The translations under genes were made by a program, and so were the position numbers. Positions 12,831 through 64,000 of a stretch of 64,000 nt of DNA are shown here, piece by piece. The notes under the pieces are model-generated. The model saw only the letters and a list, made by a program, of their open reading frames with translations. It ran no database searches and was not told where the DNA came from. Position 1 is the first letter of the stretch; each line of letters starts with the position of its first letter. The DNA is from Escherichia phage ZX4221, in the sequence record OR498728.1, one strand, 5' to 3'.

Positions 12831-15380
12831 ATGGCAGATTACAAATTGAGTCAATTAAACTCAATCGACACAATTCGTTCAGAAGACCTATTGCACATCA
12901 GAGTTAAGAAAAGACCTGAAATGTTGGGTGACGAAGACCGTAGAATGACCTATCAAGACTTCTTAGCTTCCTTCAAACTAGAAAGGTTTGTTCAGATTGC
13001 TGGGAGTACTATGGTTGGGGATTTAGGTATTGTCAAGTTACTTTACGGTGGTAAGGCAGTATTTGACCCAACAGGCTCTTCTGAGATTACTATTGGGGAT
13101 ATTTTAAAGACTTTTAAAATTAACTCAAATGGGCTTAAACTCACTATTGCAGATGCCACAAGGTCGGCAACTGTTTATCATACTTTGAATAAACCAAGCC
13201 CTAATGAACTTGGTATGAGAACTAATGAAGAGAATGATGCAAGATATGCAAGGCTTGCTGTTACAAACACATTCTCTGGGACTCAGAACATTCAAGGTGA
13301 TGCTAACTTACTTCGCCTTAGAAACCGAAATGCAAACAATGCACAATACATTGAAGGTGTAAACCCAGATGGTTCAGCTAGATGGTGGGTTGGTATTGGT
13401 AGCAATGGTTCTGACGAAGTAAAACTGTACAATAACAAATACAACTCAGTCTTGACTGTTGCAAGTAATATCTCTGTTAATAAGTCTTTAGCAATCACTG
13501 GACAAGTCCAACCTTCAGATTTCTCTAACTTAGATGCTAGATACTTTACTCAGACAGTTGCTAATCAGAGATTTGCACAGTTAGCTGGCAATAATACTTT
13601 TACAGGTGCTAACACATTTAGGACTATGAGTGTTATTTCAAATGCTGCTGCTATCACACTGCAATGTGCATCAGCAAACGAATCACTGTATCTACTTGCA
13701 AAAGATTATGAAGGTGGAAACTTATGGTATCTTGGTAAAGGTAGTTCAGGTGCTGGTGTAACTATCTACAACTATACCACTAACACCTCTTTGGTCTTAG
13801 ATGCTGCTGGAGTATCAGCAAATAAAAATGTCAGAATCACTGGACAAGTTCAACCTTCAGATTGGGCTAACATTGACTCTAGATATATTCCGGCAGCAAC
13901 ATTAAGTACAATTGCAAGAACTAATGCAAGGAATACTTTTAATGGTGTACAGACAGTTGTTACGGATAATGAAGGTCTGATTGTTAAAAACTCTACTCAG
14001 AATAGACCATTATATATTCGTGGTGTGGACACTGCTAATGTATCAAGATGGTGGATTGGTGTTGGTGGTGCTGATACGAATGATGTTACCCTAAATAACA
14101 GTTATTCTGGAACCCAATTGGTTCTCGGGAATACAACATCATACATTAACAAAACATTGACTATTGCTGGACAAGTTCAACCTTCAGATTTTTCTAACTT
14201 AGATGCTAGATACTTTACGCAAAGTGCTAGTGATAGCAGATACCTAAGAATCAGAAGCACTAGCTTCAATGTGGGAAACACTGAGAAGTGGGCTAAAATT
14301 GCCACTGTTGTGATGCCACAATCAGCATCAACTGCTGTTATTGAGGTATTTGGTGGGTCAGGTTTTAATATTAATACACCACAACAAGCAGGTAAATGTG
14401 AAATTGTTCTGCGAACTTCAAATAACAATCCAAAGGGCTTAAATGTTGTTGCTTGGAGAACATCAGATAACACCATCGTCAGGGATATTGGTTATGTGAA
14501 TACTTCTGGAGACACCTATGATATTTACTATCTTGCTGGTACGTATCAAAACAGCACAACGACAAGGGTTCAGTCTTCTAGGAATGCAAGTGTACAGTTG
14601 TTTGAAGTCCCACAGACATTTGATGATGCTCCACAAGGTATTGTGAAGGGTACAATTGCAAAATACTACACAAGTTTGCAAAAACCAACCCCTTCAGATA
14701 TTGGTGCATACACTAAAGCAGAGACTGACCAGAAGATTGCAGATGCAATTAGTGACTCTACAGACCTGAATAAAATCTATCCAGTAGGTATTGTGACGTG
14801 GTTTAACAGCAATGTTAACCCTAATACAGCACTTCCTGGGTTAACTTGGACGTACCTGAACAATGGTGTTGGTAGAACTATTAGGATTGCAGCAGCAAAT
14901 GGTTCAGATGTTGCTACAACTGGTGGTTCAGATTCTGTAACGTTATCTGTTGGTAACTTACCTTCACACACGCATAGTTTCTATGCTACCACTTCATCAT
15001 TTGATTATGGTACTAAGACGACAAATACGACTGGCAACCATGCTCATGATAGAGGTAACATGGAAATTTCTGGTGTGTTTGGTTGGTTCAGAAGTGATAA
15101 CGGTGCATTCTACACTGCTAGTGGTGCATTTGTGATGGGTGGTAGTCAGGCTTCGCATGGCTTCACAGGCTCTAACTTCACTTATGGTGCGCCTGTTGAT
15201 TTCCACGCGTCAAGAACTTGGACAGGTGTAACCAACACGACTGGTAACCACGCCCACAGTGTAGGTATTGGCGCTCACAGCCACACAGTTAGTGGTAACA
15301 CAGGTGGTACTGGTTCTGGTTCAGCATTTAGTGTTACTAACCAGTTCTATAAGCTAATGGCTTGGGTAAGAACTGCTTAA
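12831..15380 (+). CDS. long tail fibre protein
   Basis: 849 aa; three internal repeats of ITGQVQPSDFSNLDARYFTQ; C-terminal HxH motifs and terminal AFSV...W.RTA shared with 11609..12784. Confidence 0.7.
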   Translation: MADYKLSQLNSIDTIRSEDLLHIRVKKRPEMLGDEDRRMTYQDFLASFKLERFVQIAGSTMVGDLGIVKLLYGGKAVFDPTGSSEITIGDILKTFKINSNGLKLTIADATRSATVYHTLNKPSPNELGMRTNEENDARYARLAVTNTFSGTQNIQGDANLLRLRNRNANNAQYIEGVNPDGSARWWVGIGSNGSDEVKLYNNKYNSVLTVASNISVNKSLAITGQVQPSDFSNLDARYFTQTVANQRFAQLAGNNTFTGANTFRTMSVISNAAAITLQCASANESLYLLAKDYEGGNLWYLGKGSSGAGVTIYNYTTNTSLVLDAAGVSANKNVRITGQVQPSDWANIDSRYIPAATLSTIARTNARNTFNGVQTVVTDNEGLIVKNSTQNRPLYIRGVDTANVSRWWIGVGGADTNDVTLNNSYSGTQLVLGNTTSYINKTLTIAGQVQPSDFSNLDARYFTQSASDSRYLRIRSTSFNVGNTEKWAKIATVVMPQSASTAVIEVFGGSGFNINTPQQAGKCEIVLRTSNNNPKGLNVVAWRTSDNTIVRDIGYVNTSGDTYDIYYLAGTYQNSTTTRVQSSRNASVQLFEVPQTFDDAPQGIVKGTIAKYYTSLQKPTPSDIGAYTKAETDQKIADAISDSTDLNKIYPVGIVTWFNSNVNPNTALPGLTWTYLNNGVGRTIRIAAANGSDVATTGGSDSVTLSVGNLPSHTHSFYATTSSFDYGTKTTNTTGNHAHDRGNMEISGVFGWFRSDNGAFYTASGAFVMGGSQASHGFTGSNFTYGAPVDFHASRTWTGVTNTTGNHAHSVGIGAHSHTVSGNTGGTGSGSAFSVTNQFYKLMAWVRTA

Positions 15381-15387
15381 TCCCTTG

Positions 15388-15416
15388 TTGACTGATTGTT
15401 AAGATGGTGTTAATAT
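15388..15416 (+). promoter_or_regulatory. sigma70-like promoter candidate (TTGACT-17-TAATAT)
   Basis: TTGACT at 15388-15393, 17 nt spacer, TAATAT at 15411-15416; overlaps 9 bp inverted repeat AAGATGGTG/CACCATCTT. Confidence 0.45.
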
Positions 15417-15459
15417 TCTTTATGGGTATTCTCACCATCTTGGCTGATGAGGTGATTAA

Positions 15460-15657
15460 ATGCCTACAATCCTAGCAATTCTTCTAAAAAATCTAGGTAG
15501 CTTCTTCTGGAAACTCATTTTATCCCTTCTAAGTGAATACATGATTGAGAAAGTGTTCTTTAAGCTTGCAAGATATCTTGCGAGTAAAACAGACACACCT
15601 ATTGATGATGAGTTCGTAGATAACTTAGAAAAAGCTTTTAAGGGGGAGAATAAATGA
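15460..15657 (+). CDS. small hydrophobic protein (hypothetical)
   Basis: 65 aa, hydrophobic N-terminus, RBS GAGGTG. Confidence 0.3.
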   Translation: MPTILAILLKNLGSFFWKLILSLLSEYMIEKVFFKLARYLASKTDTPIDDEFVDNLEKAFKGENK

Positions 15658-16025
15658 AGTGGCTAGAGGAAGCTTTTAAAAATAATATTGGTGCAATTGT
15701 AGTTGGTATTTTTAGTGTTATTGGGATGTATACCACCATGCAAGTCTCGGATGGTAAGCAAGAAGTGTCTGTCACAACAAAGTTACAGCAGCTAGATAAT
15801 TATAGCAAATCTAATTACTCAGCTATTCGTGATTTACAGTCTGACATGAGACTGATTCAGCTAGGGATGGAGAACCAGAAAGTTCAGTTAGAGAATGTTA
15901 AGGGTGAGAATGCAAAACTTACTAAGACTCTTGATAAATTCTCTGACAGTGTGAACAATCTGGCTCAATCAGTATCAGCCTTGCAAGCTATTACTGAAAA
16001 GAACACAAAGAATACTGAAAAATAA
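15654..16025 (+). CDS. membrane-anchored coiled-coil protein (hypothetical)
   Basis: 123 aa, single hydrophobic segment IGAIVVGIFSVIGMY then heptad-like region; ATGA overlap with previous ORF. Confidence 0.3.
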   Translation: MKWLEEAFKNNIGAIVVGIFSVIGMYTTMQVSDGKQEVSVTTKLQQLDNYSKSNYSAIRDLQSDMRLIQLGMENQKVQLENVKGENAKLTKTLDKFSDSVNNLAQSVSALQAITEKNTKNTEK

Positions 16026-16030
16026 AATTT

Positions 16031-16060
16031 AAGGCTCCTTTTTACGGGAGCCTTTTTGTT
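16031..16060. terminator. bidirectional terminator hairpin between convergent genes
   Basis: GGCTCC-TTTTTAC-GGGAGCC flanked by T-runs on both strands. Confidence 0.6.
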
Positions 16061-16960
16061 TTACTTGCCTACTGACAGAGGTGCTTCAATCTTACCTGCA
16101 TGTTGGTAGTTATTAATCCCACCAATAAAATCACTTGCTGTAAGATGTTTTAAGTCACTTAAAGTGTTAAGTGAGATACCAATCTCAAAAGTTGGTGCAT
16201 GGAACTCTTCATTGTTCATCAGTTCATAAACCTGTTTCATATGGTTCTGATAAATCTGAGTATCTCCAAAGACACCTATCAAGTACCGTGGAGTGTATCC
16301 AGTCATCTTACAAAGAACTTCCAGAATAAAACCGTAAGATGCAATATTAAACGGAAGTCCTAAAAAGGTGTCTACTGAACGTTGATACCATTGTAAGTCA
16401 ACTTCACCCTCGTTAGTGATATAAATCTGAAACAGAACATGACAAGGTGCTAAAGCCATTGAGTTTGCTGCAATATCTGCTGCATTCCAAGCATTAACAA
16501 GCATGTAACGGTCTGTGATATCACCCTTCATCTTCGCTACTAAGGTCTCTAGTTGGTCTACAACACAACCATTATGACCTTCAAAGTTTCTCCACTGAAC
16601 TCCGTAGATTCTTCCACCTGCATCTTCTAACCAATCTTGTTCAGAGGAATAATTAGAGCTTAACCAGCGTTTAAAATCGTCTGACCAGATTGTCCAGCGT
16701 TCTCCATCATTTTCACCCCAAGTACGGTAACGGAGTTCACCCAGCTTATTCTCACCGTTCAGAAACCATAAAGCTTCACCGATAACTTGTCGTGTAAACA
16801 CCTGTTTAGATGTTAAGAGTGGGAAACCAGTTCGCATATCAAAACGAAACTGAGGTGGAGCAAATGCAGAGATAACATCTCCAGTTCGTGTAGTACGCAG
16901 TTCACCAACTGATAAAACATGGTTCAGAATATTTTTGTAACTTGTATCTGCTTGTGACAT
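16061..16960 (-). CDS. thyA: thymidylate synthase
   Basis: 299 aa; active-site context LAPCHVLFQ and overall ThyA-like sequence. Confidence 0.8.
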   Translation of the reverse strand: MSQADTSYKNILNHVLSVGELRTTRTGDVISAFAPPQFRFDMRTGFPLLTSKQVFTRQVIGEALWFLNGENKLGELRYRTWGENDGERWTIWSDDFKRWLSSNYSSEQDWLEDAGGRIYGVQWRNFEGHNGCVVDQLETLVAKMKGDITDRYMLVNAWNAADIAANSMALAPCHVLFQIYITNEGEVDLQWYQRSVDTFLGLPFNIASYGFILEVLCKMTGYTPRYLIGVFGDTQIYQNHMKQVYELMNNEEFHAPTFEIGISLNTLSDLKHLTASDFIGGINNYQHAGKIEAPLSVGK

Positions 16961-16961
16961 A

Positions 16962-17507
16962 TCAAAAGTGTCCTTTTACTTGTGGTGTATAGATATCAAA
17001 AGTTGCTTTTCCATCTGCTGATGGTCTTGACTGAATCTTAGCGAAAATTTTACGGTCATGCAACTTGTCAAAGAAGTTCTCAAAAGGTAGATACACAGTT
17101 GCCTCTTCAGTAACTTCATGGAAAACTGTATGGAACACTACATCAGCATATGGTAAAGCACTGACAAGGATACCTGCACCACCAATTACGAAAACATCCT
17201 CTTCAATATTACTATCAAGATACTTTAAAAATGCTCCAAAAGAGTCTTTATGAGCTTTAGCAAACATAACATCATCTTTACTAAAATCTATACCGTAATA
17301 AGGCACAGAGTTTGTCAAGATAAGATTTTCACGTTCAGGTAAAGGTTTACTTCCCAGAGTCTTGAAAGTCTCGTTACCCATTACTACTAAATTGTCTTTA
17401 GTGAGTCTCTTAAACTCTTGCATATCCTCTTTATGTCGAGGCCACGGCATACCAGTTGGAGTACCAAACTCACCATTTTCACCACTTGCAAAGATTAATT
17501 TAATCAT
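16962..17507 (-). CDS. dihydrofolate reductase
   Basis: 181 aa; N-terminal MIKLIF..G.PW motif resembling phage/bacterial DHFR; adjacent to thymidylate synthase. Confidence 0.7.
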   Translation of the reverse strand: MIKLIFASGENGEFGTPTGMPWPRHKEDMQEFKRLTKDNLVVMGNETFKTLGSKPLPERENLILTNSVPYYGIDFSKDDVMFAKAHKDSFGAFLKYLDSNIEEDVFVIGGAGILVSALPYADVVFHTVFHEVTEEATVYLPFENFFDKLHDRKIFAKIQSRPSADGKATFDIYTPQVKGHF

Positions 17508-17764
17508 TTTGTAAACCCTTTCTTAATGAACCAGTTGATAACATTCTTCACAGCTTTATTGCTATGGTAGATTAAGTGTGGCGTAGGCTGGTATGAACCA
17601 TAAGCCCAGAAAGCAATAACTTCACTACACCCTGTACACCTTGTACTCTCTTCAGCAATATGACCGTTGACTATTTCACTTACCTCACCTTGTAAGTCTG
17701 TGCATCCACAATGTGGACAACGGATAGGTGCTCCGTCAGACTCATAGCAGTGTTCAATTTTCAT
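17504..17764 (-). CDS. small Zn-ribbon protein (hypothetical)
   Basis: 86 aa with CPHCGC...CTGC. Confidence 0.35.
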   Translation of the reverse strand: MKIEHCYESDGAPIRCPHCGCTDLQGEVSEIVNGHIAEESTRCTGCSEVIAFWAYGSYQPTPHLIYHSNKAVKNVINWFIKKGFTK

Positions 17765-18280
17765 TTATTTAACCTCAAAAACTGGTTCAAGAACCAATAT
17801 AAAATCTACACAGTCATCTTCTTCATCCAGAATACCATCAAAGTTCTTAGGAACGAAGTCGAAGAGGCTCATAACAAAACAGTCAGAAGTAACCCTGATA
17901 GTTCCTCCCATGTTCTCTACAGTCAACACTGTACGACTTTCTTTTACCTCTCTCAGAAGATTACTCACAAAGTCATCTAAGAAGTACTTCATCAGTGACT
18001 TAAAACCTTTAGGGTAATCTGTACCAGAGTATGTTTCAATCTGGGGTACAAGCTTAACATTTATACTAGTCTTTGTTAAGAATGTGCTAGAGAACATGCT
18101 ATCAGGTAACTTACAAACAGTCTTTCCAGTACCTTCATGCTCAATCTCAACAAAACCAGCTTCGTCGCCACATGTAACTATTTTAAAAGATGCTTCATTC
18201 TCATACTGTGAAGCCATAAACTTTTTAAGCATCACTTTAAGGAAATCTGCATGAGCATCTTGTAAGTATATATCAATCAT
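17765..18280 (-). CDS. hypothetical protein
   Basis: 171 aa ORF in compact minus-strand operon. Confidence 0.35.
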   Translation of the reverse strand: MIDIYLQDAHADFLKVMLKKFMASQYENEASFKIVTCGDEAGFVEIEHEGTGKTVCKLPDSMFSSTFLTKTSINVKLVPQIETYSGTDYPKGFKSLMKYFLDDFVSNLLREVKESRTVLTVENMGGTIRVTSDCFVMSLFDFVPKNFDGILDEEDDCVDFILVLEPVFEVK

Positions 18281-18293
18281 AGTTAATCACCTA

Positions 18294-18653
18294 TTATGGG
18301 AACAGACACTTGATGTCATCGTTTTTAAAAACAAAACTTGTGTAGTTGTGACCGTCAACATCCAGCCAAACCGCCTGAACATCTACACCATCAAGATTGT
18401 GGTGAAGCTCTTTGATGAAGTGGTCTTTCACAATCTGACTGCTGGTTGTTTCCAGCTTAATGTTTGAGATTGCTGAACCTACAGCCATATAACCCATGAC
18501 GCGTTTCTTCTCAGTATGCTTAATCTTACCATCTTTGTAGGCCATAATGAGATTGGAAAGAATCTTCACACCATAATATTTTTCAAGGTGAGTCGGTACA
18601 CCATAAAAACCTAATGCGAAGTTTTCAGAGTGGATAATGTTTTCACGTTTCAT
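18294..18653 (-). CDS. hypothetical protein
   Basis: 119 aa ORF. Confidence 0.35.
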   Translation of the reverse strand: MKRENIIHSENFALGFYGVPTHLEKYYGVKILSNLIMAYKDGKIKHTEKKRVMGYMAVGSAISNIKLETTSSQIVKDHFIKELHHNLDGVDVQAVWLDVDGHNYTSFVFKNDDIKCLFP

Positions 18654-18654
18654 A

Positions 18655-18954
18655 TTAATCTGCCAGCCTTAAATTAAAATTAACACCAAATTTTTCGCAT
18701 ACTTCCAACATATACTCAAGGGAGACATTACCAGTGAGGTGGATTATGTTGGATACACGAGCCTGAGAGATACCACAAATTTTAGCAACTTGCTCTTGGG
18801 AAAGACCTCTGGATTTAATCTCTCTCTTAAAACGATGTGCAACGAAATCTCTCATTTCGTCTACATCCATTGGACAAACATAACTCTCCATTTCAGCCTC
18901 TCTGTCAGCCTCCCAATCATCTTGTGGAGCATAAGGGTCAAAAACCTCATTCAT
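18655..18954 (-). CDS. helix-turn-helix DNA-binding protein (putative)
   Basis: HTH-like segment LSQEQVAKICGISQARVSNI; start moved to in-frame ATG at 18954 with GGAAG RBS. Confidence 0.45.
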   Translation of the reverse strand: MNEVFDPYAPQDDWEADREAEMESYVCPMDVDEMRDFVAHRFKREIKSRGLSQEQVAKICGISQARVSNIIHLTGNVSLEYMLEVCEKFGVNFNLRLAD

Positions 18955-19159
18955 CTTTCTTCTTCCGTTTGCGTGAAGTATCAATCAATGAATCTATGTT
19001 TGTAGCCCTAACCTTTTCACGTTCATCGTTAAGATAATCATCAAGAGCCTTTTCAATCTGTGAATCATCTTGACAGATAACTGTAAAGACTGTAAAGCCA
19101 TCTGTATCGTCAATTATCTTACCATAACCGCTTCTGGGATGTAACTTTTTAAGAGCCAT
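18947..19159 (-). CDS. hypothetical protein
   Basis: 70 aa, acidic with basic C-terminal tail. Confidence 0.3.
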   Translation of the reverse strand: MALKKLHPRSGYGKIIDDTDGFTVFTVICQDDSQIEKALDDYLNDEREKVRATNIDSLIDTSRKRKKKDE

Positions 19160-19160
19160 A

Positions 19161-19544
19161 TTAGATACCTGTGCAGCTTCTGTTTTCTAAGAAATATTCA
19201 ACACCGTACATAGATTTTTGCATCAAATCTTCTTTAAACTGGATACGATGGTTGAGCATAGCCTGTACATCAATATCGTCATGGTGCTTCTCTTTAATAT
19301 TTGCAGATTGCAGGAAATACTCTGCAAGAACACGATACTGATAGTCAGTCACCTTATCTGTCATCTCTGTCAAAGACTCTTCAGAGATTGGTTTAAGTAG
19401 CTCACCATTAGCTAGGGCAACACCTTTTACAATCTGGCAAGTGTCTTCTGGAACACCTGATAAGTCCACATTTGGAAGTTCTGTTGCATTGACTGGTAAA
19501 TTCATTGCCATAACCATTGCAGCAGCTAATAAAATCTTTTTCAT
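19161..19544 (-). CDS. secreted/periplasmic protein (hypothetical)
   Basis: N-terminal signal-peptide-like MKKILLAAAMVMAMNLPVNA. Confidence 0.4.
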   Translation of the reverse strand: MKKILLAAAMVMAMNLPVNATELPNVDLSGVPEDTCQIVKGVALANGELLKPISEESLTEMTDKVTDYQYRVLAEYFLQSANIKEKHHDDIDVQAMLNHRIQFKEDLMQKSMYGVEYFLENRSCTGI

Positions 19545-19593
19545 AATGACCTCAAAGTTATATTAAATTTTGTATTACATTGAGTATAAAAAT

Positions 19594-19632: not shown

Positions 19633-19661
19633 ATTTGGCAGATTTTTTATAAGGTTACTGC

Positions 19662-19727
19662 CATCCTTCCATACCAAACCTCACCTGACCTCGCCTAACC
19701 CTACCTTACCCCACCATACAGCACCTT
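19662..19727. repeat. pentamer-periodic C/A-rich array (ACCNN-like)
   Basis: ACC recurring at about 5 nt spacing; G-poor on plus strand. Confidence 0.6.
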
Positions 19728-19764
19728 ATTAAAACACCCTGTTTAAAGACCTTTTAAAAAGGTA

Positions 19765-19790
19765 AGTCTCATTTTAATGTAGCTGAGACT
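19765..19790. repeat. conserved hairpin copy 1 (AGTCTCA-loop-TGAGACT)
   Basis: 7 bp stem, loop TTTTAATGTAGC, followed by AACTACCCATAC; recurs at 19896 and 21279. Confidence 0.6.
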
Positions 19791-19801
19791 AACTACCCAT
19801 A

Positions 19802-19856
19802 CCTCACCCTACCAGACCCTACCAGACCAGACCTTACCCTACCAGACCCTACCGAA
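19802..19856. repeat. tandem pentamer array (11 x ACCNN)
   Basis: ACCCT ACCAG ACCCT ACCAG ACCAG ACCTT ACCCT ACCAG ACCCT ACCGA read directly. Confidence 0.7.
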
Positions 19857-19895
19857 CATCACTTAAAAACCCTCTTAGAAGACTCTTAAGTGATG
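19857..19895. repeat. inverted repeat ATCACTTAA...TTAAGTGAT copy 1
   Basis: 9 bp arms, about 19 nt loop; second copy at 21386-21424. Confidence 0.55.
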
Positions 19896-19923
19896 TAATC
19901 GAATTTTAATGTAGCTCCGATTA
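19896..19923. repeat. conserved hairpin copy 2 with compensatory stem (TAATCGa / TCCGATTA)
   Basis: same loop ATTTTAATGTAGC and same AACTACCCATAC tail as copy 1 but a different base-paired stem. Confidence 0.55.
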
Positions 19924-19932
19924 ACTACCCAT

Positions 19933-19981
19933 ACCTCACCTCACCCAACCATACCATGCCTTGCCAGACCGCACCTTACCT
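19933..19981. repeat. C/A-rich pentamer-periodic array
   Basis: CTCACCTCACCCAACCATACCATGCCTTGCCAGACCGCACCTTACC. Confidence 0.5.
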
Positions 19982-20011
19982 CATTAAAAGACCCTCTTAA
20001 AAGACCTTTTA

Positions 20012-20040
20012 AAAAGGAGCCTCCGAAGAGGCTACCTAGT
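20012..20040 (-). terminator. terminator-like hairpin for minus-strand gene 20045..20485
   Basis: AGCCTC-CGAA-GAGGCT; on minus strand followed by CCTTTTT. Confidence 0.5.
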
Positions 20041-26992: not shown

Positions 26993-27187
26993 TTTTACTC
27001 CCTCTAAAATCATTAACCTCATACATTACTGCAAAAAATTATAAAAAGCAAGTTGACAATGTACTTGACAAGGTGTTAATCTTTGCGAAGTGGGTTTTTA
27101 CTTAAAAGGTTACTTAACAGTTTAACTATACAGATACTTTAAAACTCTTAAAAGATTATTTAATAGCTTTTAAAAAGCTTTAAAGTA

Positions 27188-27206
27188 TAACGTATAGAAT
27201 ACGTTA
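27188..27206. promoter_or_regulatory. perfect 8 bp inverted repeat (operator-like) in divergent intergenic region
   Basis: TAACGTAT-AGA-ATACGTTA; neighbouring near-palindrome AGCTTTTAAAAAGCT; AT-rich region with TTGACA boxes at 27053 and 27065. Confidence 0.4.
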
Positions 27207-27249
27207 AGATAAAAGATTAAAACTTAATAGTTACTTAAAAGAGGCTTAC

Positions 27250-52155: not shown

Positions 52156-52179
52156 AGGCTGCTTCGGCGGCCTTTTTTA
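52156..52179 (+). terminator. terminator-like hairpin
   Basis: GGCTGC-TTCG-GCGGCC then TTTTTT. Confidence 0.5.
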
Positions 52180-52202
52180 TTTGTATTTTGTGCAGAGTGC
52201 TG

Positions 52203-53946: not shown

Positions 53947-53970
53947 CAGGCTCCTTCGGGAGCCTTTTTC
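53947..53970 (+). terminator. rho-independent terminator-like hairpin
   Basis: GGCTCC-TTCG-GGAGCC then TTTTT. Confidence 0.6.
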
Positions 53971-53988
53971 ATTTCAGGAGATTGTTAA

Positions 53989-55094: not shown

Positions 55095-55302
55095 AAAGAC
55101 CCGCAAGATTGTACGTTCAGCAGTATTCATAGGGAGAGATGAAGTCGTCCCGTTTGCAGGGGAAGATGTGCTAACTTATAAGAAGGTTTTAAAACGTAAA
55201 TTCAGTGACCGTTTACGTGGCTTCATCTCTGAACCATTAGAAGATTTCAAAAGTCGCTGTGGCGAAGGCATCATCATTCAAGAGGCAATTATTCATGGCT
55301 GA
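55069..55302 (+). CDS. hypothetical protein
   Basis: 77 aa. Confidence 0.3.
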   Translation: MKVILARDKKTRKIVRSAVFIGRDEVVPFAGEDVLTYKKVLKRKFSDRLRGFISEPLEDFKSRCGEGIIIQEAIIHG

Positions 55303-55495
55303 TTTCTGCAAAGATTGTGCTATCGAAATGTTTGGACGTGATACAGGTGACTTAAAAGGTCTTATCACTGAAGATGACTTTAAAGCTGGTTATGCAATGC
55401 CAGTAATCTGTGAAGGTTGTGGGTGCATCTGGGTAGACCACGAAGGACAGCGTGTAAAACCTTCAGAAGATAAAGAATCTTGGGAGAGATGTTAA
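55295..55495 (+). CDS. small Cys-rich protein (hypothetical)
   Basis: CKDC ... CEGCGC; start placed at ATG 55295. Confidence 0.3.
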   Translation: MADFCKDCAIEMFGRDTGDLKGLITEDDFKAGYAMPVICEGCGCIWVDHEGQRVKPSEDKESWERC

Positions 55496-56281
55496 ATGGG
55501 TATTGTAAAAATCATCAAAGGTGATATCTTTGACGCATTTGATAAAGGTAAATTTGATATCATTGGTCATGGTTGCAACTGTATGAATTTCATGGGTGCA
55601 GGTATTGCAGCAACTATTTCTAAGCGTTATCCAAAAGTGTATGATACTGACACAGAAGTTTACCTGTTTGCAGGTGGCATTCGCCACAAACCTTGTGAAA
55701 ATTTACTCGGTAATTTCTCTGTAGCACGTTTAAAACAAGGTCGTATAGCTAACCTTTACACCCAACTCCATACTGGTAAAGATGCCCGATACAGTGCTTT
55801 AGAGTCATCTTTGAAGCAGCTTAACAGATACTGTGAAGTCAATCAGTTGAAGAAAGTCGGGTTACCTATGATTGGTGCAGGTATCGGTGGGCTAGACCCT
55901 CAAGCCGTCACAGTCATCATCAATCAGGTGATGAAGAGTGTAGATGTTTATCTGTATGTCTATGAAGGAGAGATGTACCACAAGTTACGCTCAGGTTGGA
56001 AGAACTACTGTGAACCAGAGTACTTTGCAGGTGTAGTTGTCTTCACAGATAACGCAGTTACCCTCTTCAGACGAAGAAAAGGTAAGATACATCAAAGTAA
56101 CCCTCCGGTTGAAAAGATGTCTCTAAGTAACGCTCTAGTTACCCACCTGTCGAAGAGCAACCACAGGATTGCTGTAACATTTGGTAGTGATGCAGAAACT
56201 TATATCTATGCAAGAACTGATGAGGATATCGAGACAGTTTTTTCTTCACCAGAAGTTACCTTCTTAGACGCAAAGAACTAA
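55496..56281 (+). CDS. macrodomain protein (ADP-ribose binding/hydrolase-like)
   Basis: IKGDIF, FDIIGHGCNCMNFMGAGIAATI and VGLPMIGAGIGGLD match macro-domain signature blocks as recalled. Confidence 0.55.
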   Translation: MGIVKIIKGDIFDAFDKGKFDIIGHGCNCMNFMGAGIAATISKRYPKVYDTDTEVYLFAGGIRHKPCENLLGNFSVARLKQGRIANLYTQLHTGKDARYSALESSLKQLNRYCEVNQLKKVGLPMIGAGIGGLDPQAVTVIINQVMKSVDVYLYVYEGEMYHKLRSGWKNYCEPEYFAGVVVFTDNAVTLFRRRKGKIHQSNPPVEKMSLSNALVTHLSKSNHRIAVTFGSDAETYIYARTDEDIETVFSSPEVTFLDAKN

Positions 56282-56337
56282 GAAACTCTGTAGAATATTC
56301 ACAATAGACTAAGCCTTTCTTATCTGGTAGATTTTTC

Positions 56338-56550
56338 AGGTAAGGAGGGCTTTTTCATTTCAGGATTGTGCAGGTAGAGTTCTGTAGAGAAGTCTGTAGA
56401 GAGAATTTTGAACTCCAAAGAGAAAATTCATTTTCAAACTGTGCAGGTAATCTCCAAAGAGCTTTTTCATTTTCAAAACGTGCAGAGAAAAATCAGGTCG
56501 GGCAAGAAAAATCATTTTAGAATTGTGCAGGTAGGTGGGTGCAGGTGGGG
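56338..56550. repeat. iteron-like degenerate direct repeats (TTCATTTTCA..TGTGCAGGTA)
   Basis: GTGCAG motif at about 56370, 56442, 56472, 56527 and 56539, each preceded by TTCATTTT-like sequence; CTGTAGAG repeated three times. Confidence 0.55.
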
Positions 56551-56719
56551 ATGTCGCCATTTCTCACAAGGCTACCACATCTGGAAATAAAAGTCAACAG
56601 AAAAATTTGTAGCGGATTGAAAAATAATTCTTGATTGTAGTTCTGTTTTGTGGTAGTCGCGCGCACCCGTTTCATTACAATTTTTGCAAAAAAAAAAAAA
56701 AATATTTTTAAAATTCCTA

Positions 56720-56798
56720 TTGACTCTTTGAGTATGGTTATCTAATATTTGCATCAGACGGGCAAGCAAGCCCACTTCCTAAACTGGAGAATCTAAAA
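56720..56798 (+). promoter_or_regulatory. strong sigma70-like promoter (TTGACT-17-TAATAT) with A15 tract upstream and leader hairpin
   Basis: TTGACT 56720-56725, TAATAT 56743-56748, hairpin GGGCAAGCAAGCCC, conserved RBS region CCTAAACTGGAGAATCTAAAAATG. Confidence 0.55.
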
Positions 56799-57005
56799 AT
56801 GCTTTACAGTCGTGAATTGATGGTTACAACTAACGTTAACACAAAGGTAAAACGTTTTTACATGCAAATTTGTGACGTATGGTCTAGAATATCAGAGGCT
56901 GACTATTGCAACTATGTAGAAACGGCTATTAATTCTAATTGCTACCTTACAAGAAACACTAAGAAATTTACAAGGCAGACAGCGATTTACTACTACGACA
57001 AATAA
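56799..57005 (+). CDS. small early protein (hypothetical)
   Basis: 68 aa; conserved leader/RBS cassette. Confidence 0.4.
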   Translation: MLYSRELMVTTNVNTKVKRFYMQICDVWSRISEADYCNYVETAINSNCYLTRNTKKFTRQTAIYYYDK

Positions 57006-58808: not shown

Positions 58809-59134
58809 TGATGGGTATCACTGCAATCATTGCCATTATAGCACTTTACAAGGCTTATAGCGCATATAATTTGGCAAGTAAGGCAATCACGCAGCAGGTC
58901 AATAATAACCTTGTAATGAGCTTTCTGGAGCGTTTAAGCGATGAACAAATAAAACGGTTAGAAATGAGCTTCAGATTTCAATCAAAAACTTATCAAATCA
59001 GCGACATTTTCAAAGATGATTTTCAGCTTGTCGATGATTATAACTCTCTGATAAATGCTTTAAATATCAGTGATTTAAAAGATTATCATGCTGTAATAGT
59101 TCAAGAATTGAGCAAACGAAAAAATTCCTCTTGA
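58802..59134 (+). CDS. small membrane-anchored protein (hypothetical)
   Basis: 110 aa, N-terminal hydrophobic segment; overlaps previous gene by 7 nt with no cassette between. Confidence 0.4.
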   Translation: MLMMGITAIIAIIALYKAYSAYNLASKAITQQVNNNLVMSFLERLSDEQIKRLEMSFRFQSKTYQISDIFKDDFQLVDDYNSLINALNISDLKDYHAVIVQELSKRKNSS

Positions 59135-62915: not shown

Positions 62916-62995
62916 CGGGGCTAAATAGCCCCAGATACCTTTACAGCCCCTTTATATAGATTCGATAGAGTCTATCTCATAGGGGCTTTTTTACG
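62916..62995 (+). terminator. compound hairpin/terminator at end of small-gene cluster
   Basis: GGGGCTAAATAGCCCC, then CCCCTTTATATAG...CTCATAGGGGC followed by TTTTTT. Confidence 0.45.
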
Positions 62996-63399
62996 TCCTA
63001 TCAAATCCCTTATACAACCCTTTCCCTTTCCTTTCCAGAATCTTACTAGACCTTAAAAAGCAATAACTCTATAGCTTACTCTATAGCCTTTTATTAAATC
63101 AACTTAAATATAAGCCCATAACCCGAAAGGGAAGGGCAACCATTAATTGGTATTGTTACCAATCCCTTAAACGCTCTATAAAGCCCTATAACGGCCTTAT
63201 TAACCTAACTTAAGGGATTGCATTACCTCACTCTAAAAAGCCCTTTATAGAGCTTTCTAGAGCCTTAAAAGAATCTTATAAGGGTGTGAGCTTTATCATC
63301 TCGTTAGAATTCTTGTGAATAACTAAACAACCCCTTGATAGTCACTAAAAAGTGTGTTATAGGGGCTTTAAAGTTACTTTGAAGTAGCTTAAAAGTTAC

Positions 63400-63990
63400 G
63401 TAAATGCTAGCCCCCTTAACATTTTCTTAACAATTTCTTAACAACCCCTACATAGTTATGCTTTTAAGGCACTTGTTAGCAACTTGTTAGCCCCTTGTTA
63501 AATATCTGTTAAGACCACGTAAAAGCCTTGTAAGAGTCTTTAGCATAGCCTTTAAAGCCTCTGTAAAGCCCTATAAAGAGGTGTTTGTATAGTTGGGGTG
63601 TAATTACTAGGAAGAGACTTAAAAGAGCTTACAAAGAGCTATAGAGAGCTTTTAAGAGGGCTATTTAGAGAATCACTAAGAGGGAAAGGGAACGATAAGA
63701 AAAGAGATAGTGACCATGTTAATAGCTTGTTAAAAAGATTAAACACTTGTTAGGAACTTGTTAATTATCTTAACAAAATAACTCTTAAAAATTAACTTGT
63801 TAGCTCTTGTTAGTCATCTGTTAAGACTCTGTAAAGTCTATGTATCAACTGTTAAGAACTTGTTACACCCTTGTTAGTTCTGTTAAGAATCTGTTAAGAC
63901 CTCTGAAGAGATGTTAAGAGGATGTAGTAGCTGTTAAGAGATTGTTAAGGATATTTTAAAATTCTGCAAAGTACTTGTAAGGGAGCTGTT
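63400..63990. repeat. dense array of degenerate heptamer repeats (CTTGTTAG / CTGTTAAG / TTGTAAG)
   Basis: about 20 copies in about 590 bp; no ORF of 60 aa or more on either strand from 62916 to 64000. Confidence 0.6.
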
Positions 63991-64000
63991 AAGGGCTACC

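Follow-up and report, generated by a model that had tools for sequence, protein, structure and literature searches.

Iteron-type replication origins are familiar from phage lambda, whose ori holds four O-binding repeats, from plasmid iterons, classically spaced about 22 bp apart, and from T4 oriE and the origins of the lactococcal phages c2 and sk1, which are non-coding and contain repeats. Other multi-site elements serve transcription: T7 has tandem promoters (A1-A3) before its early region, T4-type phages carry promoter-early stem-loop cassettes as repeated early-promoter units, and in the virulent phage phi29 p4 and p6 form a multi-site regulatory nucleoprotein complex at the early/late switch. 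PAK_P1-like phages have 41-nt promoter repeats (PMC4309531), and the injection stop signal (iss) region of T5 extends over more than 1 kb, is rich in inverted repeats and palindromes, and contains eight paired DnaA boxes (Davison, bioRxiv 10.1101/866236). Here we compare with these systems a repeat array in Escherichia phage ZX4221, analyzed over a 64,000-nt stretch of its genome (OR498728.1; "the window" throughout), whose genome type is Felixounavirus, that is, a Felix O1-like myovirus. The array lies in a spacer (56282-56798) running from the stop codon of a macro-domain gene to the ATG at 56799 of the first small early gene. The spacer is a predicted composite control region, and we consider it likely that the array within it is a DNA-level, oriented, multi-site protein-binding array.

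The array comprises four full repeat units in the same orientation, with the core motif TTTTCATTTTCAAnnTGTGCAGGTA (coordinates in Table 1). Each unit spans about 38 bp, the conserved 3' half reading (A/T)5-TCATTTTCAA-N3-GTGCA followed by (G/T)(G/A), while the 5' half is uniform inside a genome and differs by lineage: CTCCAAAGAG in the enteric phages, GGTCTGGCAAG-like in the Erwinia phages, and GGAAACGAT in L038, an uncultivated 88-kb phage (IMGVR_UViG_3300045988_063805) that has no close cultured relative. The form found in the Erwinia phages also occurs in Felixounavirus unit 4, whose 5' half resembles Erwinia unit 3 (GGTCTGGCAAGA). Pairwise identity among the units is only 64-82%, and unit 3 is the best conserved of them, its columns being near-invariant over 27 sequences. 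The initial annotation had counted four to five copies with a shared ending; four full units stand, its fifth copy being the 3'-half sequence GTGCAGGTGGG on its own, a clade-specific partial copy missing in wV8, SUSP1 and Sf14. The shared ending holds exactly (TGTGCAGGTA) for units 1, 2 and 4, and unit 3 ends in CGTGCAGAGA instead.

This unit is confined to a single place in the genome. Exact TGTGCAGGTA occurs three times on the two strands of the 64 kb, each time within the array, against 0.22 occurrences expected, which places the motif clearly above the background frequency that a genome-wide check had been proposed to exclude; the skeleton TCATTT-N7-GTGCA is matched exactly only at the four array sites within the window. 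A fuzzy search with the 25-nt consensus recovers the four copies at 2-5 mismatches and nothing better than 6-7 in the rest of the 64 kb, and a weight matrix made from 59 distinct units scores the four array sites at 38-52 bits; in the window and in the complete UAB_Phi87 genome (87.6 kb) alike, the next best site reaches 15 bits.

Unit starts in the window are 73, 39 and 45 bp apart (repeat search, four-copy families), and the gaps of 13-48 bp between units are kept between phages. The Erwinia phages space their units by 37, 37 and 39 bp and L038 by 38-39 bp; the enteric phages combine spacings of 39-45 bp with a single gap about as long as two units (73-77 bp) at the place where the Erwinia phages hold a unit. 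In the window a filler occupies the slot of this further Erwinia unit, hence the distance of units 1 and 2, which is about twice the ~37-bp spacing. These patterns suggest as the ancestral state a tandem of ~38-bp units, perhaps five of them, in which geometry mattered.

Conservation of the array extends well beyond the close relatives of ZX4221. The 2.2 kb surrounding the spacer match 251 phage records, nearly all of them Felixounavirus with Escherichia, Salmonella or Shigella as hosts, the best at 92-94% identity, and a sensitive search with the spacer itself matches 288 phage records. In the Erwinia phages, 28 records of which carry the array, only query 146-248, the array itself, finds a match. 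The order of macro gene, gap of about 460-510 bp and small genes is found in SUSP1 (Suspvirus) and Sf14 (Mooglevirus) and also in Kolesnikvirus (Erwinia phage M7, Salmonella phage SB18); when Felixounavirus, Suspvirus, Mooglevirus and Kolesnikvirus are aligned, the units appear as conserved islands, and every lineage examined has three to five of them. A pattern scan of IMG/VR returned 43 matching DNA stretches, about 30 of which carry the array, nearly all on contigs of 84-94 kb, and the remainder match by chance and are unrelated, several being coding repeats. L038 is collinear with the window, and its proteins are only 31-58% identical to the window's, yet five units follow its macro gene.

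Over 26 aligned sequences, pairwise identity reaches 93% at the 12 fixed core positions and 85% across the 18-nt cores, falling to 71% in the inter-unit spacers and to 61% at macro-gene third codon positions. In comparisons of enteric with Erwinia phages, the cores retain 70-75% identity and their surroundings about 35%. Judged by these alignments, the array is under strong purifying selection across the whole phage subfamily, as a cis-acting protein-binding array would be.

Several individual records deserve mention. The five units of L038 (600-1060) fall into two clusters and are followed by at least nine TTAACA repeats like those of the window's terminal region, and a Dam-like methylase gene precedes its short macro gene. 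EC106 (ON210138.1; L004/L006) is a "complete genome" opened inside the spacer, with about 215 bp missing (the conserved block and the promoter cassette described below); its break just after unit 4 was considered as a terminus and rejected as an assembly gap from which the repeated promoter cassette is missing. An apparent insertion in the array of L042 (4420-4621) was also discarded, the sequence after unit 3 being GC-rich and non-phage and the contig probably a metagenomic chimera; on the reverse strand beyond unit 3 we noted by eye what may be the start of E. coli mukB.

The sequence strongly supports an intrinsic terminator that closes the operon from rII to macro and a strong host-type promoter, complete with UP element, that opens the terminal cluster of small early genes. 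In the mechanism that we propose, the array between them probably acts as double-stranded DNA, presenting oriented binding sites to a sequence-specific protein. This binder would be phage-encoded, because the 5' half of the unit changes in concert in each lineage and the host genome is without sites, no copy of the array having been found in E. coli genomes or plasmids. Several copies of the protein would assemble into a complex of fixed geometry, since the enteric phages keep the slot of the missing unit as a double-length gap. A structured RNA or Rfam family was rejected on the absence of an Rfam match in the spacer (none at E<=5) and of compensatory pairs in the consensus RNA fold (0 of 24; -7.5 kcal/mol); the fold z-score is -2.6 on the top strand, owing to the terminator, whose hairpin dominates the predicted fold of the spacer, and 0.0 on the bottom strand. 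A CRISPR array was also rejected, the repeats being too divergent and their gaps kept between phages. Among host motifs inspected by eye (DnaA, CRP, IHF, Fis, Fur, OmpR, PhoB, LexA), and likewise among sigma-54, sigma-E and sigma-32 promoters, none fits all units.

One possible binder, the helix-turn-helix (HTH) protein at 18655-18954 put forward in the initial annotation, fares poorly: its HTH_3 gene (minus strand) is present in 260 records, none of them an Erwinia phage, which makes it a poor candidate because the array is carried by phages of that group. Cro/C1-type HTH dimers also usually bind palindromes rather than direct repeats. Upstream of the operon that contains the HTH_3 gene lies a repeat-rich non-coding region of its own (19650-20020), with 10-bp C-rich repeats (ACCCTACCAG and ACCCCACCTT, five of each) in two copies of about 120 bp, which resembles the C-rich tract 3' of the array in most relatives.

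What such a complex would do is a matter for a more cautious proposal. As a guess, its most likely role would be that of an iteron-type replication origin or a replisome loading site, aided by transcription from the adjacent promoter, and we put this origin role forward tentatively. A unique array of iteron-like design, set in a terminator-insulated gap beside a strong promoter, is consistent with it, as is the fact that no origin is known for the Felix O1-like group, whose literature on origins, iterons and transcriptomes yielded nothing relevant. The locus shares with iteron origins several same-orientation repeats with some 20-25 conserved bp at a unique non-coding site, adjacent transcription, and a lineage-wise co-variation of the repeats such as iterons show with their initiator. 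It differs from them in that no neighboring initiator gene, DnaA or IHF sites or recognizably separate AT-rich unwinding element were found, and in its wider spacing.

A number of observations weigh against an origin at this site. No initiator-like (Rep-type) gene was found in or beside the array, whose neighbors code for a macro-domain protein and for small proteins without known function. The count of DnaA boxes (80 against 96 expected) shows no enrichment, and the spacer has only one box, with a single mismatch; the only very AT-rich tract (56688-56716) appears fully accounted for by the promoter UP element, in register. At 37-45 bp, the units stand further apart than classical iterons do, and they lack helical phasing. 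GC skew is featureless at 56.4 kb and follows gene orientation, its cumulative minimum lying at about 26-27 kb. At that minimum, the 227-bp region 27023-27249 is very AT-rich and divergent, between the DNA polymerase gene (minus strand) and a plus-strand operon, contains repeated CTTAAAAG motifs as well as a pair of adjacent TTGACA hexamers, and would be an equally good origin candidate. Of the origin or regulator-binding array first suggested, the array has emerged as a unique, conserved and probably cis-acting set of protein-binding sites, and the origin is left without an initiator gene, an enrichment of DnaA boxes or a skew signal to mark it.

The same complex might instead act on transcription, a possibility that we regard as doubtful. 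A phage protein would coat the array behind the terminator, 190-370 bp upstream of the first early promoter, and would either stop transcription of the long upstream operon from running on into the terminal early genes and the genome end, or switch the adjacent promoter on or off at the early-to-middle transition. The array does sit exactly between terminator and promoter, unit 1 includes the T-tract of the terminator, and the units have the uniform polarity that a polar block would have, in front of a cluster that is transcribed towards the physical genome end; the C-rich, G-poor tract that follows the array in most lineages could be a backup Rho entry site. Yet the sites are far upstream for ordinary promoter control, a simple roadblock needs neither conserved spacing nor a two-part unit, and the only recognizable regulator is the HTH_3 protein, not found in the array-bearing Erwinia phages. 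At least four further copies of the promoter cassette occur in the small-gene cluster without any array, which argues that the array is no standard part of that promoter. In comparison with phi29 p4 and p6, both systems place several spaced, A/T-tract-rich sites between transcription units, but p4 sites are inverted repeats that overlap promoters, whereas the array consists of direct repeats 190-370 bp from the nearest promoter.

It is unlikely that the units are themselves promoters in tandem, serving a modified RNA polymerase holoenzyme or an alternative one, or that they encode a repeated short non-coding RNA. Early regions of phages are often preceded by several promoters in a row, and the tandem promoters of T7 and the repeated promoters of PAK_P1-like phages give this idea precedents, and two Erwinia units read TTGCCA-17-GAAAAT and TTGCCA-17-TGAAAT on the opposite strand. 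Across lineages, however, neither strand has a consistent -35/-10 pair, the scan finds only the promoter at 56720, and the motif occurs nowhere else in the genome; a general promoter motif was rejected on the same grounds. A repeated RNA is opposed by the lack of a conserved fold, covariation or Rfam match set out above. Repeated early-promoter cassettes do exist here: the right part of the spacer (UP element, TTGACT-17-TAATAT and leader hairpin) is one such recurring cassette. The four-unit array differs from it in having no promoter consensus and in not being repeated with the cassettes.

Similarly unlikely is an entry-stop or tether site like the injection stop signal of T5. Here the array would pause DNA entry or anchor the DNA at the inner edge of a terminal small-early-gene module of about 7.5 kb (~8.6% of the genome) until the module is expressed; it would be a polar DNA-protein barrier that halts or holds the incoming genome, or insulates its end, through a new two-part DNA-binding protein. 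The likeness to the T5 iss lies in conserved non-coding repeats at the inner edge of a terminal early block of about 8% of the genome that are better conserved than the adjacent variable genes, and the first promoter of the module stands just to the terminal side of the array. With a physical end near 63.3-64.0 kb, the array would be about 7.5 kb from it. Against this, the array is made of four simple direct repeats, without a DnaA-box cluster in the spacer and without the inverted repeats and palindromes of the T5 iss (the spacer has only short, weak inverted repeats), and transcription of the module runs outward, whereas that of the main T5 pre-early block does not. To our knowledge, two-step DNA transfer has not been reported for Felix O1-like myoviruses.

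The position of the genome end also bears on whether the array might itself be a terminus or packaging site, which was rejected from the mapped ends of UAB_Phi87. That phage has terminal repeats of 608 bp, and experiment gave terminal SpeI fragments of 4322 and 2819 bp (UAB_Phi87 paper). Their sum less the repeat is 6533 bp, and one in-silico fragment fits, of 6568 bp at 13014-19582, corresponding approximately to the window from 59.6 kb to past its end and not to 56.4 kb. The fragment sizes permit two placements of the repeat, in a 1.6-kb non-coding region (window ~63.3-63.9 kb) or in the small-gene cluster (~61.8-62.4 kb), of which we prefer the former because window position 64000 is precisely where the pEP20 record starts; under either placement the array would lie about 5.5-7.5 kb from the physical genome end. 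The ~1-kb non-coding region 62990-64000, which is dense with short repeats (about 25 of CTTGTTAG / CTGTTAAGA, plus CCCTATAAAG-type units) and includes a 62-bp tandem at 63794-63919, probably holds the 608-bp direct terminal repeat and the physical end. The only perfect DnaA box of the window (63314-63322, minus strand) is found in this region.

Very improbable is a functionless relic, in which the units would be decayed duplications of a terminator tail, retained only through linkage or because they offer an anchoring homology when modules are exchanged. The terminator tail at 53950-53979 (GCCTTTTTCATTTCAGGA) shares 16 identical nt with the start of unit 1, the T-rich half CTTTTTCATTTCAGGA matching 53964-53979, which points to terminator tails as the source of the units' T-rich half. 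A lone weak unit-like site (52165-52202, 15 bits, TTTTTTATTTGTATTTTGTGCAGAG) lies directly after the rIIB terminator, where it overlaps a promoter-like TTTGTA-17-TATAAT and is kept in UAB_Phi87, and the spacer marks the boundary of conserved and mosaic modules. Against a relic, the core positions of the array outdo coding sequence in conservation across genera while the spacers drift, the array survives in L038 at the protein divergence given above, and its 5' half-sites change in concert.

The weakest reading, a small protein-coding gene, can be dismissed as most implausible: the short open reading frames (ORFs) on both strands that have been annotated in relatives (wV8 gp13, Tribble_125, Shy_0013/13a/13b, Phi87_48-50, Sf14 gp039) lie in differing strands and frames, the indels between genera are of 2, 4 and 2 nt and thus not multiples of three, and all six frames of the spacer are interrupted in most lineages, with at least one stop in the window and at least two in the Erwinia phages, so that none is open across lineages, whereas frame 1 of a macro-gene segment used as control is. 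The initial view that the region lacks a convincing ORF is thereby borne out for 56282-56798 as a whole, which is non-coding across lineages despite the annotated ORFs, and the small "hypothetical proteins" placed here in many GenBank records are probably spurious.

Table 1. Features of the macro gene-small gene spacer and its flanks (window coordinates)
Feature	Position	Strand	Details
Macro-domain ("phosphatase") gene	55496-56281	+	261-aa ORF; Pfam Macro 5e-07; phrog_335 7e-115
Intrinsic terminator of upstream operon	56311-56352	+	17-pair stem, then TTTCATTTCA (terminator scan)
Repeat unit 1	56343-56380	+	core 56352-56376 TTTTCATTTCAGGATTGTGCAGGTA; 51.0 bits; repeat and fuzzy searches
Filler with 12-bp tandem (AGAGTTCTGTAG / AGAAGTCTGTAG)	56376-56412	+	~36 bp; kept only within Felixounavirus
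Repeat unit 2	56416-56453	+	core 56425-56449 AATTCATTTTCAAACTGTGCAGGTA; 5' CTCCAAAGAG; 41.5 bits; repeat and fuzzy searches
Repeat unit 3	56455-56492	+	core 56464-56488 TTTTCATTTTCAAAACGTGCAGAGA; 5' CTCCAAAGAG; 44.0 bits
Repeat unit 4	56500-56537	+	core 56509-56533 AAATCATTTTAGAATTGTGCAGGTA; 5' GGTCGGGCAAGA; 38.2 bits
Variable segment	56534-56590	+	52% pairwise identity over 56546-56590
Partial copy, 3' half only (GTGCAGGTGGG)	56539-56549	+	without T-rich half; repeat search
Conserved ~95-bp block	56591-56685	+	conservation profile, alignment; not in Erwinia phages
A15 run	56688-56702	+	A5 in all 22 other distinct aligned sequences
UP element AAAAATATTTTTAAAAT	56698-56714	+	-57 to -41 of promoter; read from sequence; kept in relatives
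Sigma-70-type promoter TTGACT-17-TAATAT	56720-56748	+	promoter scan; predicted from sequence
5' leader	56759-56801	+	hairpin GGGCAAGCAAGCCC, Shine-Dalgarno GGAG, ATG of first small gene; leader common to other cassettes
First small gene downstream of spacer	56799-57005	+	phrog_5293

The remaining parts of the spacer fall on both sides of the array. Upstream, a terminator at the same spot is annotated in Tribble, wV8 and KhF3, and its T-tract doubles as the T-rich half of unit 1. The motif CTGTAGAG, of which the initial annotation had listed three copies, occurs exactly only at 56382 and 56394 within the spacer, the third site (56288) reading CTGTAGAA, and its presence in the spacer is not conserved outside Felixounavirus. 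Over the window this 8-mer is found 14 times against 2.5 expected, a count that none of 100 shuffles reached; the 12 copies elsewhere are intragenic and have no shared flanks, and codon usage is the probable cause of the excess. Downstream of unit 4, the variable segment is a C-rich, G-poor tract in most relatives (for example CCCACCACCCTCTTACTCCCCCTCCTCCC), for which other sequence is substituted in the window's clade. The conserved block that follows contains a 12-nt GC mini-hairpin (56657-56668) whose stems vary on both sides between genera (CGTG/CACG in wV8, CGCA/TGCG in Sf14, with GCG/CGC also seen) and after which comes TTTCATT; selection could be acting on it as a small hairpin in DNA or RNA.

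The right end of the spacer belongs to the early genes. The near-consensus promoter recognized at the outset is confirmed by the promoter scan and looks like a genuine strong promoter, its UP element fitting, in register, 16 of the 17 specified positions of what is reportedly the UP consensus of Estrem et al. from 1998. The A15 tract exists as first described, two positions further on, and by comparison with the A5 of the other sequences it is a lineage-specific expansion of the A5 with which the UP element starts and no separate feature. Promoter and leader together make up one copy of a cassette of about 109 bp that recurs at 59121, 60171, 61960 and 62556; because these cassettes recur, the AT-rich tract and the promoter are ordinary parts of the early-gene cluster. 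The wV8 annotation DR_6 covers this cassette stretch and not the array. Between 56990 and 62660, intergenic cassettes of two kinds alternate to make up the small-gene cluster: type A (5-6 copies of ~103 bp), with a terminator-like hairpin GGGGCTTAA...TTAAGCCCC between TTTACA and TATCTT, resembles the promoter-early stem-loop cassettes of T4-type phages, and type B (~109 bp, 4-5 copies) consists of UP element, TTGACA, TAAATT and leader hairpin.

The genes around the spacer differ in how constant they are. The macro-domain gene is the last of the upstream operon, and the array always lies directly 3' of it, as it also does in SUSP1, Sf14, Erwinia M7, SB18 and L038. The gene upstream of macro varies by lineage, being a zinc-ribbon-like ORF, a spanin-like lipoprotein or a Dam-like methylase, and the downstream small proteins differ between lineages too; from 56799 onward the small genes are equivalents of Felix O1 genes ~12-23, with products of unknown function. 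In the window a 66-aa ORF (55295-55495) just 5' of the macro gene has two CxxC pairs, which give it a zinc-ribbon look, and is kept in the enteric Ounavirinae. A search of the neighborhood for a conserved DNA-binding gene ended without a candidate, this ORF being conserved neither in the Erwinia phages nor in L038.

The array appears to be previously undescribed: the Felix O1 and UAB_Phi87 papers list other repeats and not this one, and the Felix O1 genome paper states that the temporal control of transcription in that phage is not understood. The PhageMaP study made intergenic knock-outs in Bas63. Felix O1-like phages are used for Salmonella typing and in biocontrol and therapy cocktails, and are represented in the BASEL collection (Bas63). 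In these phages we found no non-coding element of the region to be better conserved than the array, which is also unique in the genome, and for that reason it offers a precise 200-bp target for origin mapping, protein pull-downs and engineering. An array-bearing plasmid might titrate the binder and thereby inhibit the phage, and in engineered genomes the array may be a site to avoid for payload insertion.

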